Shown: positions 2,810 to 26,331 of the stretch, one piece after another
Layout of the letters: every line of letters starts with the position of its first letter
How positions within the stretch are numbered: position 1 is the first letter of the stretch
IMG/VR virus record: IMGVR_UViG_3300022602_000083
Coordinates: 3,857 to 67,856 of that record
From: a virus
Length of the DNA: 64,000 bases
Direction: 5' to 3' (one strand)
Notes under the pieces: generated by a model
Told to the model about the DNA's origin: nothing
Database searches by the model: none
Seen by the model: the letters and a program-made list of their open reading frames with translations, nothing else
Made by a program: the position numbers and the translations under genes

Positions 2810-3352
2810 ATGCCAGAGTCGCATCAAAATTGGCAGTACCTCGGTGCTAGCGGATTTGTTGGAGCGTACACCACTACAGGTGGTGGCGGTACTCCTGTTG
2901 TGCCACGAAGTGAAATGGATTTCCTTCGTATCGGTGTTGGCCGTGCTCCTCAAGCCGAATATCCAGACGGTTACCTAGGAACGATTCGTTCTCGTCGTGA
3001 TGATAAGGGAAAGCCTTATGCAGTCTCCGACACTATTCTTGACTCTCTTAAGAATCGCCAGAATCAAAGAGCTTACCAACGTGGTGTTCACCGTGGTGAG
3101 CGTATTGATCCGGCCCAATATCTTTGGCCAGAAAATCTACAACCAGATCGCAGAGTAAAAGCAAAGCCTCAGCTTGTAGATAATGATGGCTCACTAACTA
3201 TGGACATGAAGAAGAACGCTCCTGCTATGTCTCTTGCTCCAGCACCTCATCTTGTTAATGATGGTAAGTCAAACATATCCGCAAATGTGCCTGCAGAGTT
3301 TAACCCTCGCACTGCAGATACATTCTCTCATTTGAAACCTAGGTGGGCATAA
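2810..3352 (+). CDS. Hypothetical phage protein
   Basis: 180 aa ORF with AAGGAG RBS. Confidence 0.7.
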   Translation: MPESHQNWQYLGASGFVGAYTTTGGGGTPVVPRSEMDFLRIGVGRAPQAEYPDGYLGTIRSRRDDKGKPYAVSDTILDSLKNRQNQRAYQRGVHRGERIDPAQYLWPENLQPDRRVKAKPQLVDNDGSLTMDMKKNAPAMSLAPAPHLVNDGKSNISANVPAEFNPRTADTFSHLKPRWA

Positions 3353-4008
3353 TGTCTTGGAACCCAACAGAGTCAGAACGTTCAGAGCATGGAGTTCGTC
3401 CAGACGCACGCTTTCCTGCACAACCTATTAAGAGCTACCAAGGTGCTGGTGCACCCTTGGATAAAGAAGGCATTCCTTTTCTAAGTGCTAACGGTATTGA
3501 TAGTTCACATGGTACGACTATGGGTCAGATCATAGGTAGAAGTTCCGGTAATGCTAAGCGTGTTGCTTGGGAAACTGATGCTCCTCAGTATATTGAGCGT
3601 CGTGGTCAATCACAAAGAGTTTGGTACAGCCTAGGAGAAGTAAAGAACTGGGTAGGAAGTAAAAGAGCTGCAGGTAGTTCCCCTGAACAAAAAGCTCAAA
3701 ATGAATCTCAATGGGGTCCATGGCACAACCATCTTACAAAACTTCATGAAGGTTTAACAGCCGCTAATGAGGTAAAGCGTAAGAATGGTGAGCCTGTAGG
3801 CGATTACTATAATCAAACACATAGAGATCATAAGAACATTCATCTTCGTATGGAAGAGGCGCCTGGCGGTCGTCCTAACGTATCAGATAGCGAAGATAGT
3901 CCTCAAGGTATTCAGGTAGATGCCCCTAGACCAGGTGCACGCCCAGATCTTAATAAGGCAAGACTTCACGGTTTCGTTAATCCTTCTCGTGCTCCTAAGG
4001 AGATGTAA
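3352..4008 (+). CDS. Hypothetical hydrophilic protein
   Basis: TAATG coupling at both ends. Confidence 0.65.
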   Translation: MSWNPTESERSEHGVRPDARFPAQPIKSYQGAGAPLDKEGIPFLSANGIDSSHGTTMGQIIGRSSGNAKRVAWETDAPQYIERRGQSQRVWYSLGEVKNWVGSKRAAGSSPEQKAQNESQWGPWHNHLTKLHEGLTAANEVKRKNGEPVGDYYNQTHRDHKNIHLRMEEAPGGRPNVSDSEDSPQGIQVDAPRPGARPDLNKARLHGFVNPSRAPKEM

Positions 4009-10733: not shown

Positions 10734-12770
10734 ATGTTTTCGTTTAAACTCGCAGACGAGTTTGTAGCATCATACCGATCCAAGAAGGTTCCGTGGGGAT
10801 ACCAGGATGCTGCCGGCAACTCCTTAGGAGAGATTACCTTTCTAAGAACTTACTCTCGTCTTAAAGAGGATGGGACCAAAGAGACTTGGGTGGATGTGTG
10901 CGAACGTGTAGTCAACGGCATGTACTCACTCCAAAAGGATCACGCCAAGCATAACCGACTACCTTGGTCTGACATGAAGGCTGCTACTTCAGCCAAAGAG
11001 GCGTTCGATCGCCTATTCAATCTTAAGTGGACTCCTCCTGGCCGTGGCCTATGGATGATGGGAACTCCACTAGTCAATGTACAGAAGAACTCTGCAGCGT
11101 TGCAGAACTGCTCCTTTGTATCTACAGAGTCTATGACCAAGAACAATCCGGCTAAGCCATTTGCCTTCCTCATGGAAGCATCCATGCTTGGCGTTGGCGT
11201 GGGCTTTGATGATAAGGGCGCAGATAAAGACTTTACTATCTATGATCCACAGAAAGGCGAAGAATATGTCATCCCCGACACCCGAGAAGGCTGGGTTGAA
11301 TCAACCACAGCTCTCATCAATGCTTACCTACGACCAGATTCAAAGGCTCCAACGTATAGTTACACAGAAATTCGAGCAGCAGGCGAACCAATCAAAACTT
11401 TCGGAGGAAAAGCTTCCGGACCAGAGCCTCTAATCAAGCTTCACAACCACATCATCAACCTATTTAAGAACAGAGCTGGCGATAAGCTGACTCGCCGTGA
11501 TATCGCAGATATCGGAAACATGATGGGCGTATGTGTGGTTGCAGGTAACGTTCGACGTTCAGCTGAACTTCTAATCGGCCGTATTGATGACGAAGACTTC
11601 CTAAATCTTAAGAACCATGAAGTATTCCCTGAGCGTAATGCCTACGACCCAACAGGGGAGAACTCTGGATGGGGCTGGATGTCTAACAACTCAGTAGAAG
11701 CGTCAGTAGGTCAAGACCTATCTCCAATCATTGACGGTATCGCCCGCAACGGTGAGCCGGGAGTAATCTGGATGGACGTCACTCGTAAGTACGGCCGTCT
11801 AGCAGATCCTGAGAACAACAAGGACTGGCGTGCCGCTGGCTACAACCCATGTGCTGAACAATCATTGGAATCCTTTGAGTGCTGCACATTGGTAGAAACC
11901 TACATCAACCGCCATGACAGCCTAGAAGATTTCAAGCGCACCCTCAAGTTCGCCTATCTCTATGCCAAGACTGTAACTCTCATCCCTACCCACTGGGAAG
12001 AAACCAACGCCATCATGCAGCGTAACCGTCGTATCGGAACCTCAATCTCCGGTATCGCTAACTTTGCTGACAGCAAGGGCTTGCCTCTACTCCGTACTTG
12101 GATGGACGAGGGATACAAGATCGTACAGTCCTATGATAAGAGCTATTCAGAATGGTTGGGTATTCGTGAGTCTATCAAGACGACCACAGTGAAGCCTTCC
12201 GGCACAGTCTCTATCCTCGCAGGTGAGTCTCCAGGAGTTCACTGGACACCAGGAGGCAAGTACTTCCTACGCACAATGCGCTTTAGTAAGGCTGACCCAA
12301 TGGTTGCCCTATTTAAGATGGCTAACTATCGTGTCGAAGACGCTGAGAGTGATCCTACAAATACTGCAGTTGTCTACTTCCCTATTAAGAGTAACTCCGA
12401 ACGCTCAGAGCACGATGTATCTATCTATGAGAAGATGGCTTTGGCTGCCACAGCTCAGCGTTATTGGTCAGATAACTCGGTGTCAGTAACTATCTCATTT
12501 AACCCTGAGACAGAGGCTAAGGCAATCGGTACAGCTCTGCATATGTATGACGGTCAGCTAAAGACCGTGTCATTCCTACCAATGGACAATGGCTCATACG
12601 CTCAGATGCCGTATACAAATAGTACCTCTGAAGAATACGAAGAAGGTACAATGACTTTGTTCCCAATTGATTTCTCGGGAATCTATGAAGGCATGGGTCT
12701 GGACGCAATTGGCGAAAGCTACTGCACCACAGATGCATGTGAAGTTAAGCTAATCAAAGACAACGCCTAA
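10734..12770 (+). CDS. nrdJ: Class II (B12-dependent) ribonucleotide reductase
   Basis: PPGRGLW, LQNC, GNVRRSA, NPCAEQ, TVKPSGT and C-terminal CTTDAC. Confidence 0.93.
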   Translation: MFSFKLADEFVASYRSKKVPWGYQDAAGNSLGEITFLRTYSRLKEDGTKETWVDVCERVVNGMYSLQKDHAKHNRLPWSDMKAATSAKEAFDRLFNLKWTPPGRGLWMMGTPLVNVQKNSAALQNCSFVSTESMTKNNPAKPFAFLMEASMLGVGVGFDDKGADKDFTIYDPQKGEEYVIPDTREGWVESTTALINAYLRPDSKAPTYSYTEIRAAGEPIKTFGGKASGPEPLIKLHNHIINLFKNRAGDKLTRRDIADIGNMMGVCVVAGNVRRSAELLIGRIDDEDFLNLKNHEVFPERNAYDPTGENSGWGWMSNNSVEASVGQDLSPIIDGIARNGEPGVIWMDVTRKYGRLADPENNKDWRAAGYNPCAEQSLESFECCTLVETYINRHDSLEDFKRTLKFAYLYAKTVTLIPTHWEETNAIMQRNRRIGTSISGIANFADSKGLPLLRTWMDEGYKIVQSYDKSYSEWLGIRESIKTTTVKPSGTVSILAGESPGVHWTPGGKYFLRTMRFSKADPMVALFKMANYRVEDAESDPTNTAVVYFPIKSNSERSEHDVSIYEKMALAATAQRYWSDNSVSVTISFNPETEAKAIGTALHMYDGQLKTVSFLPMDNGSYAQMPYTNSTSEEYEEGTMTLFPIDFSGIYEGMGLDAIGESYCTTDACEVKLIKDNA

Positions 12771-15332: not shown

Positions 15333-15520
15333 GCTAATACCGTTAGCACTACACCGTTATCCTGTGCCCATTCAACTGGCTCAGAGATAGACTCGATTGT
15401 TAGGTTGGCTCCACCATCTACTAAGTCATCAGAGATATGTAGTAGAAACATTTGTGCTGCTTCATAGTCATTGAAAGGACCTATCAATGACTCAGTGATA
15501 CTGTCGAATAGAACGTACAT
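15329..15520 (-). CDS. Hypothetical protein
   Basis: TAATG coupling. Confidence 0.6.
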   Translation of the reverse strand: MYVLFDSITESLIGPFNDYEAAQMFLLHISDDLVDGGANLTIESISEPVEWAQDNGVVLTVLA

Positions 15521-17325
15521 TATCTTCCTCTCTTTCTCATTGAACCTACGACTACAGACCTAGCAAACGGCAGAAGATCACGGGCGCTAGCTACTCGACC
15601 ATAGATCTCAACACCATGCTTGAACTTGTCATCGGTATACCCATAACGCTCTTCGTACCATACACGCTCTCTATCCTCCATGATTAAGGTCATGGTGGTT
15701 AGTACTCCACGCTTACTGATACGTTCAATAACTTCATCATTCTTGTCGGCATCGAAGACACCGTCAGTAATAATGAATAGCATCTTATTCTTCTTACGTG
15801 AAGACATAAGAAGTTGCTCAGCTGCTAGCAATGATGAGTACGGATTAGTACCACCATTACCATAGATGAACTTGTAGGTAGTTCTATCTGCAGACTCCTC
15901 ACGACGATACGCTGTCTCAGCAGCATCATCGAAGGCATAGACTGTTACCAGACCGCCTACTTGTTCTAGAGCACGCTTGATAGTCCAGCATGCAATAGAG
16001 GCTTCACGATCGTTGCCACCGCCCATAGAACCTGAGCGATCAACTAAGATCACAGCTTCGATATCAGCACCATCAGTACCCTCATCCCAACGATCGAAGG
16101 CTTCATCAATCTCACAGCCTCTGATTACACGTTGGACATTGAGCCTACCACTGGCTTCTTGCTTATGCCAAGCTGGTTCGCACTCATCACGCAAGCGTTC
16201 TAGCTCGTGTGCGAACTTACGATATACAGCCATAGCTTCAGCAGGGACGCTAGTCTTATCGAACCTACCATTCTTGATAGTATCGTTGTGCTTACCATCG
16301 CCTCCGACAATAACCTTTTGCTTTGTCTTGACGTCAGCTTGCACATCCTTACGTGCTAGTACATCCTCAACTACTTTATCGAGCATGTCGTGAACACTGT
16401 CTGGAATACCACCTAGACTTTCATGATGACCTTCTCCATCTAGCTTACCTCCTGGATTATCTGTATTGCGGTTGGCCATATCCAACGCATCCTGCTGTGT
16501 GGCAGGGGATTTGTTTGTGTTGGACGGCGTAGGTGACTCAGCTTTACCACTGTTCTTACCTTGGTTAGCGTCACGCTCCTGCGCCTTGCCAGGATCAGGA
16601 CGACCCTTACTTACTGGGTCACGAGAGGTACAACCATTCATACCTTCTGGTGTCTTATCAGACCAGTTAGCAAGCACCTCATTCTTGAATCGTCTAATCA
16701 ATTCAAGACCCTTGTCGTAGTCCTTAGGGAATGCTAATACACGATACTGATCAACGATGTCAACGATTGCGGGGATTAGTGAAGGCTCTGCGAACATATC
16801 TCTGAACGCTTCACGTACCTCAATCGGTAGATACCTACGACCACGCACCAGCATATAGTTACCCATAGCATCTTCAGGTGTGCGGCCTAGCCATCTAGCC
16901 ACAGTTGCAGTGAGGAATGGTGCAATAGATGGATACCTAGATACGAACAGCGTTTCGATACGCTGATCCTCTAGCATATTAGCTGCTTGCATCAAGTCTT
17001 CCTCAAGCACCTTCTTCATGAAGACTGTGCCTTTGCGTGGTGTATACAAGTGATGGGCTAACTCGTGGAAGTTAAGACCATTTACCTGAGTCAACGCATC
17101 AAGATCAATGTCTTCTATCTGATTGGCATTGATAAAGATTGCTTGACCATCTGACCAAGCAGGTGCAGGACCATCAGGAACAACATTCACAATCACTGGG
17201 TCACCAGTGATTACTCTGTCTGCCTGTTCATACACACGGCATAACGCATTAAGTCTCACAGCACGAAGCTGTGCTTCCTCTGTACGCTCTGCTATATACC
17301 TTTCATCTAAGTTGTCTTCGAACAT
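15520..17325 (-). CDS. vWA-domain protein with N-terminal HExxH (CobT-like)
   Basis: FHELAH, NMLEDQRIE, MIDAS VDRSGSM, GGT and IITDG. Confidence 0.85.
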   Translation of the reverse strand: MFEDNLDERYIAERTEEAQLRAVRLNALCRVYEQADRVITGDPVIVNVVPDGPAPAWSDGQAIFINANQIEDIDLDALTQVNGLNFHELAHHLYTPRKGTVFMKKVLEEDLMQAANMLEDQRIETLFVSRYPSIAPFLTATVARWLGRTPEDAMGNYMLVRGRRYLPIEVREAFRDMFAEPSLIPAIVDIVDQYRVLAFPKDYDKGLELIRRFKNEVLANWSDKTPEGMNGCTSRDPVSKGRPDPGKAQERDANQGKNSGKAESPTPSNTNKSPATQQDALDMANRNTDNPGGKLDGEGHHESLGGIPDSVHDMLDKVVEDVLARKDVQADVKTKQKVIVGGDGKHNDTIKNGRFDKTSVPAEAMAVYRKFAHELERLRDECEPAWHKQEASGRLNVQRVIRGCEIDEAFDRWDEGTDGADIEAVILVDRSGSMGGGNDREASIACWTIKRALEQVGGLVTVYAFDDAAETAYRREESADRTTYKFIYGNGGTNPYSSLLAAEQLLMSSRKKNKMLFIITDGVFDADKNDEVIERISKRGVLTTMTLIMEDRERVWYEERYGYTDDKFKHGVEIYGRVASARDLLPFARSVVVGSMRKRGR

Positions 17326-17336
17326 TTGTAGCCCCC

Positions 17337-18713
17337 TTATACGTTATATGCTGCTGCTACTACCCATTGTTGAAGTTCTTCATCAAGTGTTGGTGTCTTC
17401 TCAGCTTCTACTGCTTCTTCCTCAATTACTGGGGCAATACCGAAGTCTGATTGGATGTTGTACTGATGTGTCTGGAATACCAAACGAACTGATGCTTGCT
17501 CTTCAGCACCGAAGTGAGCGATGAAGTTTTCCACTGCGAACTCATAGCCAAGCTTGCCTACGAAGTCACTGAACTCAATGAGCATGTTTGTGCTGATTGG
17601 GGTGTCGTACTGACCCTTGGCTGCTTCTGCACGAAGCTGCTTAACTACTGTACGCAATGCCTTGCTTGCTACGAGCTTTTCCTCGACTGCATCATCGTAG
17701 TCCCACGCTAGCTGAATATCAAAGCGGTTACGCATTGCAAAGTTCAGCGGTGTTGTACCAATGTAATCTGGATTCATAGTAGCGAAGATGGTTAGATCTG
17801 GATGAGCCTCAATAGTTTCACCCATGTGATCTAGCAGTGTGATAGTACGACGACCATCAGTCAATGGATACAAGGTGGTATAGATCTTAGGACTAATGAA
17901 GTTCATCTCGTCTAGCAGCAACACGCCACCGTTACGAACCACATCGGTTACTGGACCATCAATCCAACCATAACCACCATTACCATCAGGAATGAAGCCA
18001 CCGAATAACTGGCGAGATTCCATAGATGCGTTACCAGATACTGTAGCCATACGCAGATCATTTTCAGCAGCCCATGCTTCTACAGCTGTTGTCTTACCTG
18101 GACCAGTTGGGCCATAGATAAGAACGTTAATGCCTTCGGCACGTGCGATATCAAAGGTCTTGAAGTCTTCGACTCCATACACCTTACGATGCACATAGCG
18201 TTCTGCCAGGTGCTTAGATGGAACTGTTGCTAACGACACGTTAAAAGCGGGGGTGCTGTCGTCTGTTTGTGTTGGCACAGGTACTACCAACGGACTTGTT
18301 GTTGCTCGGTTATCTATCACGTATTCCTCCAGGTTGTCGTCTCCTACCTCAACTTGAGAATAGAAGTCTTGGATTACATCTGCAATGGATGTCTTCATAT
18401 CCACTGTAGATTTATTGTGTGCACTTACTGCTTTAGTAGTAAGGACGGGAGAGTATCCCTTGGCATCAATAGCACGCAAGTCTGCTGCTGTCACATATAC
18501 ACCAACAGGCCTGTGAGTAACTACTTCGCCATCCTTAAAGGATGTATTTAGATTGGCAAGGGTGTCAGCCTCCCACTTATTGTGGGTACCCTTGGTTCCA
18601 TCAGTAAGACGTGAATAGACATTGATAGCTCCCTTGTAAGGAACTAGTAATATCTGACGTCTATGATTATTCATAGATGCTTCATATGACTCTGTGAACA
18701 TTGCGATGTCCAT
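17337..18713 (-). CDS. MoxR/CbbQ/CobS-like AAA+ ATPase
   Basis: GPTGPGKT, LLLDEMN, ATMNP and RNRF. Confidence 0.9.
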   Translation of the reverse strand: MDIAMFTESYEASMNNHRRQILLVPYKGAINVYSRLTDGTKGTHNKWEADTLANLNTSFKDGEVVTHRPVGVYVTAADLRAIDAKGYSPVLTTKAVSAHNKSTVDMKTSIADVIQDFYSQVEVGDDNLEEYVIDNRATTSPLVVPVPTQTDDSTPAFNVSLATVPSKHLAERYVHRKVYGVEDFKTFDIARAEGINVLIYGPTGPGKTTAVEAWAAENDLRMATVSGNASMESRQLFGGFIPDGNGGYGWIDGPVTDVVRNGGVLLLDEMNFISPKIYTTLYPLTDGRRTITLLDHMGETIEAHPDLTIFATMNPDYIGTTPLNFAMRNRFDIQLAWDYDDAVEEKLVASKALRTVVKQLRAEAAKGQYDTPISTNMLIEFSDFVGKLGYEFAVENFIAHFGAEEQASVRLVFQTHQYNIQSDFGIAPVIEEEAVEAEKTPTLDEELQQWVVAAAYNV

Positions 18714-19143: not shown

Positions 19144-19473
19144 CTATTCAGTAATTATTACTTCGCTTACATCATCTGACTCTAGATTGCTTCTATAGTC
19201 AGCCTCAAAGATTTCATTGATTCCTACATGAAAACGATTGAGGATACGACGAGGGCGTGAATTGCGACGCTGTGTTGATTCATAGCATCCCATGTAGCTC
19301 TCGTGGTAGTATTCATGTCCTTTAAACCGTAGGTTCTTGATTACGGTATAAGGTTGAGCTTTTGCTATTCCTTGCCCACAGTTACCACAAGTAACGTAGT
19401 CACTGAGGGCATCGTAGCCCTTAGCATCCTCGTCAGTTCGTGAGTTAACTGTGGCTACCTTTTTCTTTGGCAT
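19144..19473 (-). CDS. Zn-binding hypothetical protein
   Basis: CGNC...H..C; AGAAAGGG RBS. Confidence 0.65.
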   Translation of the reverse strand: MPKKKVATVNSRTDEDAKGYDALSDYVTCGNCGQGIAKAQPYTVIKNLRFKGHEYYHESYMGCYESTQRRNSRPRRILNRFHVGINEIFEADYRSNLESDDVSEVIITE

Positions 19474-21488: not shown

Positions 21489-21560
21489 TCTAGTGTTGAG
21501 GGGAAAAGGGGGAATTTCGTGCCACGGCACTCCCATACACCCACAGGTACCTCACTAGCG

Positions 21561-21633
21561 TGCCCCCGGCTGGAATTGAACCAGCAACACCCACCTTAGG
21601 ACGATGGTGTTCTATCCATTGAACTACGGGGGC
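21561..21633 (-). tRNA. tRNA-Arg (anticodon CCT)
   Basis: Full cloverleaf: GCCCCCG/CGGGGGC acceptor, GTTC/GAAC D-arm, loop GT-CCT-AA, GCTGG-TTCAATT-CCAGC; no encoded CCA. Confidence 0.9.
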
Positions 21634-21636
21634 AGG

Positions 21637-21669
21637 TGAGCAGTTTTACCTCAGGTCATACTCAGGACC
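21637..21669 (-). ncRNA. H-type pseudoknot motif, copy 2
   Basis: GGUC-CU-GAGUA-U-GACC-UGAGGUAAAAC-UGCUC-A, ending 3 nt before the tRNA 5' end. Confidence 0.55.
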
Positions 21670-21677
21670 AAATCTAT

Positions 21678-21965
21678 CTATGACAATAGACCGTGCAGTT
21701 CTTCTGAAGAAAGGATGCGGTCAGTTGGTTGAGGCCAATTAACCCAGCCCTCTGGCTGTTCCTGTCCTTCTTCAAGCCATGGGGAAATACGAACTGCGTA
21801 AGGAACCTCCATTAGTCCTACTTCTGGATTTCCTGTGCCATTTTTGAATGCTTCTAGCGTAGCCTTGTAGATATCGTCTACATTATTGGCCGCTTCTACA
21901 TCCATAATGACTTGTGTAGCAACCATCATGGACACACGATGTGTGTATGTCGTTTGCTTAGTCAT
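21678..21965 (-). CDS. Hypothetical protein
   Basis: AGAAAGGG RBS before MTKQTTY. Confidence 0.65.
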   Translation of the reverse strand: MTKQTTYTHRVSMMVATQVIMDVEAANNVDDIYKATLEAFKNGTGNPEVGLMEVPYAVRISPWLEEGQEQPEGWVNWPQPTDRILSSEELHGLLS

Positions 21966-22063
21966 TTGTATCCCTTTCTGTATGTTTTGCGGATTGTTTG
22001 TGTTGGTGCATGCATGGTTTATACTCCCCATACTATGTGAGTTTATGTGCATACTATTCCTGT

Positions 22064-22360
22064 AACACTACTTGGGACAAGCCATCATCGTGTTGAGCCC
22101 ACGAAGTCTCAACGAGGATGAAGGTTCAACCAGGACGGGTCGGATACACCTATTAGCGAACTCATAAGAGTTGCGTTCGGAGCCTTAGCAGAACGTCTCC
22201 CTAACTCTTCCTTTCGTGCGGATATGTATGTCTTGGATTGCTATGCAATCCGAGGCCAGGACAGACCACAGTGATTACTCATCGAGTGTGCTGTCGAGGC
22301 TTCGCATGGCATAGAAAATAGGCGGGGGAGCGTACCCTCTGTCGCTCAACCCCGCCTTTC
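22064..22360 (+). ncRNA. Candidate ~300 nt rod-shaped sRNA, antisense to the early operon
   Basis: ORF-free; TACTAT at 22052; nested stems whose G-U pairs favour the + strand; terminal hairpin 22320-22360. Confidence 0.5.
22316..22360. terminator. Bidirectional terminator-like hairpin
   Basis: AAAAT-AGGCGGGG-GAGCG...CGCTC-AA-CCCCGCCT-TTC. Confidence 0.65.
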
Positions 22361-22507
22361 TCAGTTAAAGTTCTACTGCTATCCAAAAGCATAGGAAATC
22401 TAAACTAATGTAATATTTATCAATAGAGAAGCCAACGGCAAAGCGTTTAGACATGCCCATCTGTAACCAATACTTGTTGGCTATTCTAATCTCAGTACTC
22501 TTTATCA

Positions 22508-22762
22508 TTAGTGCTCACGCTCCTCATATGCCTGTAATGCATACTGTAGGTTGTTGAAATACTCACCACGATGGCAGGTACCACGGGCGTGGTTGTATGT
22601 CCACACTACAAAGGGGTCATATTCACTGCGTGGGGCTAGGCACAGCACCACATCGGTGTATTCGTCGGCTTGTTTGTGTTGGAGCACTGTTGCCCCTGTG
22701 GACTTACCACCATCACCCTGCAATACTATGCCGGGTTTGATTGTGCTTACATCTTCTCCCAT
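22508..22762 (-). CDS. Hypothetical phage protein
   Basis: GGAGG RBS; PFVVW...GEYF. Confidence 0.65.
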   Translation of the reverse strand: MGEDVSTIKPGIVLQGDGGKSTGATVLQHKQADEYTDVVLCLAPRSEYDPFVVWTYNHARGTCHRGEYFNNLQYALQAYEEREH

Positions 22763-26238: not shown

Positions 26239-26310
26239 TGGTCGTTAGCTCATTGGTAGAGCGCCCTACTCATAATCGGGAGGTACCTGGTTCGATTCCA
26301 GGAGGACCAA
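26239..26310 (+). tRNA. tRNA with CAT anticodon (Met or Ile2)
   Basis: TAGCTC-ATTGGTA-GAGC, loop CT-CAT-AA, CCTGG-TTCGATT-CCAGG; one mismatch each in the acceptor and anticodon stems. Confidence 0.8.
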
Positions 26311-26331
26311 CGTTGTCAAGCTCAATTCCGT

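Follow-up and report, generated by a model that had tools for sequence, protein, structure and literature searches.

The window analysed here is a stretch of 64,000 nucleotides, part of a 67.9-kb virus record (IMG/VR IMGVR_UViG_3300022602_000083) with an estimated completeness of 69%. From about 14.1 to 24.8 kb all of its genes are read on the minus strand. This block encodes, besides a WhiB-type regulator, an AAA ATPase, a VWA protein and a pyrimidine-dimer glycosylase; outside it, the window also has genes for terminase, portal and a B12-dependent ribonucleotide reductase. The terminase is closest to that of Streptomyces phage BRock (52% identity). Public sequencing runs containing the window stretch come from lake and other freshwater samples, and the stretch or parts of it are present in runs from 22 studies of such waters. 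Given its WhiB gene, BRock-like terminase and freshwater occurrence, the virus is therefore an uncultured freshwater actinophage. Freshwater Actinobacteria are among the most abundant lake bacteria.

Two adjacent genes of the minus-strand block, at 15520-18713, encode an AAA_5 ATPase, whose PHROG annotation is porphyrin biosynthesis (CobS-like), and a protein of 601 aa that has a VWA domain at its C-terminus. The ribonucleotide reductase gene at 10734-12770 accompanies this pair. A link to Ro60 and Y RNAs through the nearby VWA-domain protein was dropped, no TROVE domain having been found.

The features considered below surround a gap in the coding sequence.

21678-21965, minus strand: downstream ORF of 95 aa, without family match; not the gene found behind the RNA in relatives
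21995-22005, minus strand: copy of an 11-nt motif behind the RNA, separated by 30 nt from the start codon of the gene that follows
22050-22295, minus strand in the preferred reading: RNA body of 246 nt, from helix P1 to the 3' strand of the proposed helix P3; extent taken from homology to 10 other distinct sequences
22321-22356, either strand: GC-rich, terminator-like hairpin (arms 22321-22327 and 22350-22356) between the 47-aa ORF and the RNA
22365-22508, minus strand: upstream ORF of 47 aa, by eye homologous to the ORF ending just before the RNA in the related locus L085
23127-23483, minus strand: WhiB-type regulator, in the same gene block as the gap

The gap itself (21966-22364) is non-coding and lies between the two minus-strand ORFs. 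It holds three short ORFs of 31-37 aa, all unconserved; within the RNA no conserved ORF exists in any frame, and no reading frame is kept among its homologues. Save for these three ORFs, the gap is as free of coding sequence as a preliminary description of this DNA had it. That description proposed a structured non-coding RNA of about 300 nt, rod-shaped, transcribed antisense to its neighbours and perhaps serving as a decoy of RNA polymerase. The sequence items on which it was built, namely the hexamer at 22052-22057, the GC-rich hairpin, the stems and the side hairpins, are all present in the window. That a structured non-coding RNA lies in the gap is now supported by covariation in 11 homologues; the strand, the shape and the kinship proposed for it fared differently, as detailed below.

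The 95-aa protein gave no relatives and the WhiB protein only two distant loci. ARAGORN called two tRNA genes in the window, tRNA-Arg (21560-21633) and tRNA-Met (26239-26311), and no tRNA-like or tmRNA gene in the gap. The tRNA-Arg gene is 417 nt away from the RNA.

Relatives of the 108-aa neighbour protein served as the starting point in the collection of homologues and led to five loci. L004 was found to have blocks in common with the gap, together with a hairpin whose stem has changed on both sides. Further homologues came from pattern scans and from a scan with the small protein that lies behind the RNA in relatives, real matches being separated from chance ones by profile search. Real homologues made up 1 of 3, 2 of 2, 3 of 28, 7 of 9 and 11 of 12 stretches in successive scans, and none of the 35 and 2 stretches returned from species genomes. 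The outcome was 10 further distinct homologues in 13 phage or metagenome contigs, i.e. 11 distinct sequences in 14 contigs with the window included: the window, L013, L004, L012 (identical to L023 and L039), L003, L076, L079, L080, L084, L085 (identical to L086) and L088. They represent about nine independent lineages. Homologues are 203-256 nt long in five sequences and 404-480 nt in five, so that the family ranges from about 203 to 480 nt; L013, which is 92% identical to the window over 271 nt, is truncated at its 5' end. No RNA homologue was detectable in L005 and L006, two relatives by the 108-aa protein, and L002 ends at a contig edge.

The fold assigned to the RNA consists of the following elements, listed from its 5' end.

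22260-22295, minus strand: P1, 5' hairpin (strands 22287-22295 and 22260-22270), present in 10 of 10 full-length homologues
22235-22251, minus strand: P2, hairpin of 7 bp, from covariation
22220-22230 (5' strand) and 22050-22060 (3' strand), minus strand: P3, proposed closing helix, hand-read
22130-22197, minus strand: central subdomain closed by P5 (22194-22197 / 22134-22137), from conserved blocks and P5 complementarity
22160-22171, minus strand: small hairpin with a GNRA-type tetraloop, from hand reading and folds in 5 of 8 sequences
22085-22121, minus strand: long hairpin arm made of P6a (22117-22121 / 22085-22089), an internal loop, PE (22092-22113) and a conserved 10-nt loop, from covariation
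22071-22081, minus strand: P7, small 3' hairpin of 4 bp, hand-read, with 3-4 bp in 10 of 11 sequences

Evidence for selection on this fold is carried by P2 and the long hairpin arm. These correspond to the two side hairpins of the preliminary description (about 22230-22256 and 22086-22120, respectively) and proved to be the best-conserved parts of the RNA. In a MAFFT alignment of the 11 sequences, 15 pairs were tested, comprising P2, PE and two pairs of P6a. Paired bases occupy 94.5% of their cells, compared with 75.8% in shuffles, and 12 of the 15 pairs have changes on both sides. Taken separately, P2 is paired in 98.7% of cells with four of its seven pairs changed on both sides, and PE in 97% with all six pairs so changed. 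None of 500 shuffles was as high in any of four of the five measures, and slid registers reached at most 44%. Even the close pair of window and L013 differs by one compensatory change in P2 and one in P6a, which indicates, as far as sequences can, that the fold is under selection within the window's own lineage.

Compensatory changes are also seen in the variable 5' helix and in several smaller helices. P1 keeps its position in the 10 full-length sequences while being very different in sequence, and it occurs in two forms, a short hairpin of 10-15 bp in five of them and, in the other five, a long-range helix of 17 bp around some 190-230 nt. Helices beyond P2 and PE were mostly defined by hand on the minus strand, their strands being checked afterwards. 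Two-sequence and MAFFT-based consensus folding added little to P2 and PE, as the variable parts are misaligned by MAFFT. P3, together with the hand-read P4, lies between the stretch after P2 and the 3' end. Of 10 sequences compared with shuffles for perfect complementarity of P3, L080 alone is clearly above chance (9 bp, 1 in 1000) and L088 marginally so (7 bp); the window is not. P7 is constant in position and different in sequence, weak support for a helix so short.

The central subdomain contains three sequence-conserved blocks (22182-22191, 22155-22165 and 22137-22148), with little or no difference among the window, L013, L004 and L012. The strands of P5 vary between lineages and their complementarity is kept. 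The whole subdomain is absent or reduced in L003, L076 and L085, and its energy in single-sequence folds of eight sequences is weak (z from -1.75 to +1.18). By reading, the stem of the tetraloop hairpin in L079 differs from that in the group of L004, L012 and L088. A T-loop-like hairpin with a 7-nt loop was likewise read by hand in the subdomain and appears in one of the eight single-sequence folds.

The conserved fold thus described appears to be branched and not a rod. The rod had been built from the following stems, each of which can be formed by the window.

22081-22085 / 22306-22310: outer closing stem
22120-22127 / 22296-22303: closing stem of 8 nt, including one G.G mismatch
22157-22161 / 22213-22217: stem
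22166-22173 / 22202-22209: stem
22174-22178 / 22191-22195: stem

Both closing stems lie in sequence that is absent from the nine other lineages, and the stem 22166/22202 competes with the local tetraloop hairpin at 22160-22171, which covaries in relatives. A rod is thus not what has been conserved.

Folding energy by itself is weak evidence here. With the GC-rich hairpin included, the window folds better than shuffles, with z of -3.41 on the plus strand (0 of 100 shuffles) and -2.36 on the minus strand. Without that hairpin the values fall to -1.83 and -0.46, so the expectation that the plus strand would fold better than shuffled sequence was borne out for the stretch with the hairpin and only weakly for the remainder. 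Among the five short forms, again without the hairpin, z ranges from -0.03 to -2.79 in the minus sense and from +0.33 to -3.08 on the other strand. On the minus strand, neither the window nor L003 (z -0.03) folds better than its shuffles.

Which strand is transcribed can be judged from the wobble pairs of conserved helices. Counted against 366 Watson-Crick pairs of distinct helix variants, the interior non-Watson-Crick positions are 14 G.U and 3 A.C when read on the minus strand (binomial p=0.013), a count that could be biased by the helices having been picked by hand while reading that strand. P1 alone contributes 11 G.U and 2 A.C. In L013, one helix outside the count shows an A.C in its interior when the minus strand is read. 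The minus-strand form of P1 is the more stable one in 6 of 10 sequences (window, L003, L079, L080, L085 and L004), and in the remaining four the two strands are within 2.4 kcal/mol of each other. Pointing the other way, the minimum free energy of the whole molecule favours the plus strand in the window and L079, and the GC-rich hairpin of the window sits on the side where a plus-strand RNA would end. Weighing these results together with the motif described below, we regard it as probable that the RNA has the orientation of the flanking genes, on the minus strand. The wobble pairs had originally been taken as a sign of plus-strand transcription; this holds for a few stems found only in the window and is reversed in the conserved helices.

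RNA-library runs say nothing for or against either strand. In six of them, 31-37% of sampled words of 21600-22600 were matched. Contigs from four such runs extended over the 95-aa gene and over a divergent copy of 21994-22110, but none covered 22139-22600 at 90% likeness, a hole that is uninformative, the contigs carrying neither strand nor end information. One 151-nt contig from an RNA run contained the conserved block of a relative.

Expression signals were sought around the RNA. The minus strand of the window carries eight exact copies of an 11-nt motif between 14144 and 22681, spaced by about 1-1.7 kb.

Ends of exact copies, minus strand: 14154, 15261, 16522, 18274, 19505, 20802, 22005 and 22681

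With up to one mismatch allowed, 15 matches are found where 2.8 are expected, a number reached by 0 of 100 shuffles. In 13 related loci the motif occurs 48 times in the sense orientation and never in antisense. It is located 2-30 nt before ribosome-binding sites, some copies lying inside ORFs, and once just before a tRNA gene (L006, about 5053). In eight of nine other full-length lineages it precedes P1 by 17-23 nt, L004 being the one without it, and the window, like L004, has no copy upstream of the RNA. The motif may serve these phages as a promoter, as a signal for translation or as a site of RNA processing. Related phages tend to lose their similarity where it occurs.

The GC-rich hairpin shows a reciprocal arrangement. 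Relatives have no hairpin at the position of 22321-22356 and carry the sense-strand motif there instead; in all nine other lineages a GC-rich hairpin is found downstream of the RNA. By reading, it begins a few nucleotides past the last conserved helix and does not overlap it. The window is thus without the order seen in relatives, motif before the RNA and hairpin after it. Consensus scans of both strands around the RNA in the window and two relatives called no sigma-70-type promoter and no canonical terminator, the hairpin at 22321-22356 included; the boundaries of the unit are therefore placed by position.

In all nine lineages other than the window's own, the RNA is followed by a GC-rich hairpin, a second and a third hairpin, of which the third covers the ribosome-binding site, and then a gene for a CxxC protein of 62-81 aa. 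In the window and L013 a copy of the 11-nt motif and two different genes come after the RNA, and the three hairpins are absent from both. A distant homologue of the CxxC protein is nevertheless encoded in the window, preceded by its own copy of the 11-nt motif.

19144-19473, minus strand: distant CxxC homologue, 36-48% identity over 40-74 aa, 2.5 kb from the RNA

No Pfam family was matched by this homologue, and no NCBIfam entry by the L003 copy. The RNA is accordingly not in constant association with one downstream gene family. It behaves as a module of its own, because the window and L013 keep it without the CxxC arrangement and the 47-aa ORF upstream of it in the window resembles the upstream ORF of L085.

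The hairpin trio between the RNA and the CxxC gene is itself conserved (about 4000-4080 in L003, also in L012, L076, L079, L084, L085 and L088). Its third hairpin pairs across the ribosome-binding site. Its second hairpin has the 5' flank and part of the sequence in common with the long arm of the RNA, and the two may bind one and the same factor.

Searches of known RNA families gave no counterpart. With the 4227 models of Rfam 15, only the two tRNAs of the window exceeded the gathering score; at E<=10 the gap had two matches at chance level, a microRNA and a snoRNA, and six related loci had one tRNA at E<=1. Neither the 6S (RF00013) nor the Ms1 (RF02566) model matched the gap or the whole 67.9-kb record at E<=10. 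In controls, the 6S model matched 7 of 14 genomes, four of them above cut-off, and the Ms1 model exceeded its cut-off in none of the 14. INPHARED, a collection of cultured phages, gave no DNA match to the gap or to the RNA of one relative, and a 7.5-kb stretch matched it only through the tRNA. Two exact-pattern scans of bacterial and archaeal species genomes returned the 35 and 2 stretches mentioned above, all chance by profile search; such scans detect near-identical blocks, and diverged host copies would escape them. Full-text literature searches and term look-ups in the main text of PMC5737381 gave no description of the RNA. On the strength of Rfam 15 and the literature search, the RNA most likely represents a new, previously uncatalogued family. 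Two local resemblances were dropped, one between a purine-rich block and a conserved part of RNase P RNA, the other between a junction and the hammerhead core, both being too short and without a model match.

What could such an RNA do? We lean, by a modest degree of confidence, towards a discrete, structured RNA of a new family, made on the sense strand by uncultured freshwater actinophages and acting through its fold. It would span about 22295 to 22050 on the minus strand. Its branched fold would begin with the variable 5' helix, able to hold a large insert, and proceed through a small invariant-looking hairpin, an optional central subdomain and a long hairpin arm with a conserved loop to a small 3' hairpin. 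In most relatives it seems to sit like a gene of its own, with the motif in front and the GC-rich hairpin behind. The discrete RNA would arise as a primary transcript or by cleavage of the operon transcript, in both cases at the motif-marked start of the unit, and its fold and conserved loops would bind a protein or RNA partner early or in the middle of infection. It would not be the leader of one particular gene. Only tentatively do we go on to suggest a new class of compactly folded phage RNA with an expression unit of its own, composed of an expandable 5' helix, an arm with a conserved loop, and T-loop-like and GNRA-type tetraloop hairpins. A whole group of abundant lake actinophages would employ it in host takeover, where it could be catalytic, sequester a host factor like a sponge or form the RNA component of a ribonucleoprotein.

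The alternative closest to these data is a cis-acting element of the sense-strand mRNA, such as a leader, a riboswitch-like sensor or a processing or stability module, controlling the gene behind it. The constant order of RNA, hairpins and CxxC gene in nine of nine lineages outside the window's own speaks for it, as do the conservation of the whole segment from the RNA to the CxxC gene, equal to that of the RNA, and two purine-rich stretches that, by reading, resemble ribosome-binding sites and lie inside helices of the RNA. In most relatives the succession of unit-start motif, structured domain, GC-rich hairpin, hairpin over the ribosome-binding site and gene is indeed what a riboswitch or leader would look like. 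Yet the gene behind is not constant: the window and L013 retain the RNA under structural selection with other genes behind it and without the three hairpins, and the CxxC homologue of the window is placed elsewhere with its own motif copy. No overlap of domain and GC-rich hairpin, hence no obvious pairing switch, was seen by reading, and no aptamer family was matched. The conserved order may, moreover, only mirror the relatedness of the phages. We therefore consider control of the following gene rather unlikely as the principal role of the RNA.

Further from the data is the antisense RNA of the preliminary description, a plus-strand rod of about 300 nt running from the hexamer at 22052 to the hairpin at 22321-22356 and acting as a 6S- or Ms1-like decoy of RNA polymerase. 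A short T-run follows the GC-rich hairpin on the plus strand of the window, the plus strand folds better relative to shuffles than the minus strand with that hairpin and somewhat better without it, a few window stems have G.U on the plus strand, and the presumed host belongs to Actinobacteria, where Ms1 occurs. Against this, the hairpin that would terminate the RNA is missing at that place in all nine other lineages, both closing stems use sequence that relatives lack, and the putative -10 hexamer (22052-22057) is covered by the 3' strand of P3 and would thus lie inside a helix strand. Antisense transcription is also opposed by the 14:3 ratio of conserved wobbles, by the stability of P1 and by the motif, sense-only in its 48 copies and placed before the RNA in relatives. 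Kinship with 6S or Ms1, whose models gave no match at E<=10, is not supported, nor is the decoy function, and the antisense RNA appears improbable. Even less credit is due to explanations without RNA, in which the locus would be a DNA-level element (protein-binding sites, a recombination hotspot or an origin) or conserved filler with chance helices. Folding energies near those of shuffles, the swapping of gene modules at this place between phages and the small number of independent lineages, about nine, are in keeping with them, but double compensatory changes in 12 of 15 tested pairs, which no shuffle or slid register approaches, are not. G.U is tolerated on one strand, and insertions and deletions preserve helices instead of reading frames. 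A single-stranded DNA fold is not expected because terminase and portal imply packaging of double-stranded DNA.

The preferred RNA can be compared with known systems. 6S RNA binds RNA polymerase holoenzyme and templates product RNA. 6S and Ms1 are non-coding and 200-300 nt in size, as is the RNA described here in its shorter forms, and Ms1 is found in Actinobacteria; a stand-alone RNA titrating a protein would also be the most likely kind of action here. 6S is a rod with a central bubble, whereas the phage RNA appears branched, with hairpin arms and short long-range helices, and, as far as tested, it is encoded by phages only. ROOL and GOLLD, large orphan structured RNAs, are associated with phages and occur in proximity to tRNAs according to PMC5737381, and their cryo-EM structures are presented in bioRxiv 10.1101/2024.12.08.627333. 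They resemble the present RNA in being non-coding, phage-carried and without an assigned function, in having many helices and conserved loops and in lying sometimes near tRNA genes. The present family differs from them by its much smaller size (203-480 nt), its lack of an Rfam match and its freshwater actinophage carriers.

To our knowledge, phage-encoded structured RNAs without an assigned function are few, and those studied have unusual architectures. The RNA reported here is clearly maintained by selection on its structure in phages that infect freshwater Actinobacteria and is small enough for probing and structure work, its natural short and long forms delimiting modules. Identification of its partner would throw light on a step of infection in bacteria that are difficult to cultivate. 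The strand-specific 11-nt motif at the starts of genes, tRNA and RNA is a second lead, to the organisation of expression in these phages.

Two further non-coding stretches were observed in the vicinity of the RNA or at its place. Just upstream of tRNA-Arg in the window, 39 nt (21635-21673, minus strand) are 95% identical to positions 2559-2597 of L004; the genes preceding this stretch differ between the two, and it is also present in RNA-library contigs. L006 has a 740-nt ORF-free gap (3243-3988) where closer relatives carry the RNA. In this gap, which has no detectable homology to the RNA, about 18 nt near 3345 are complementary to a distant segment near 3550; the gap may encode a different RNA.
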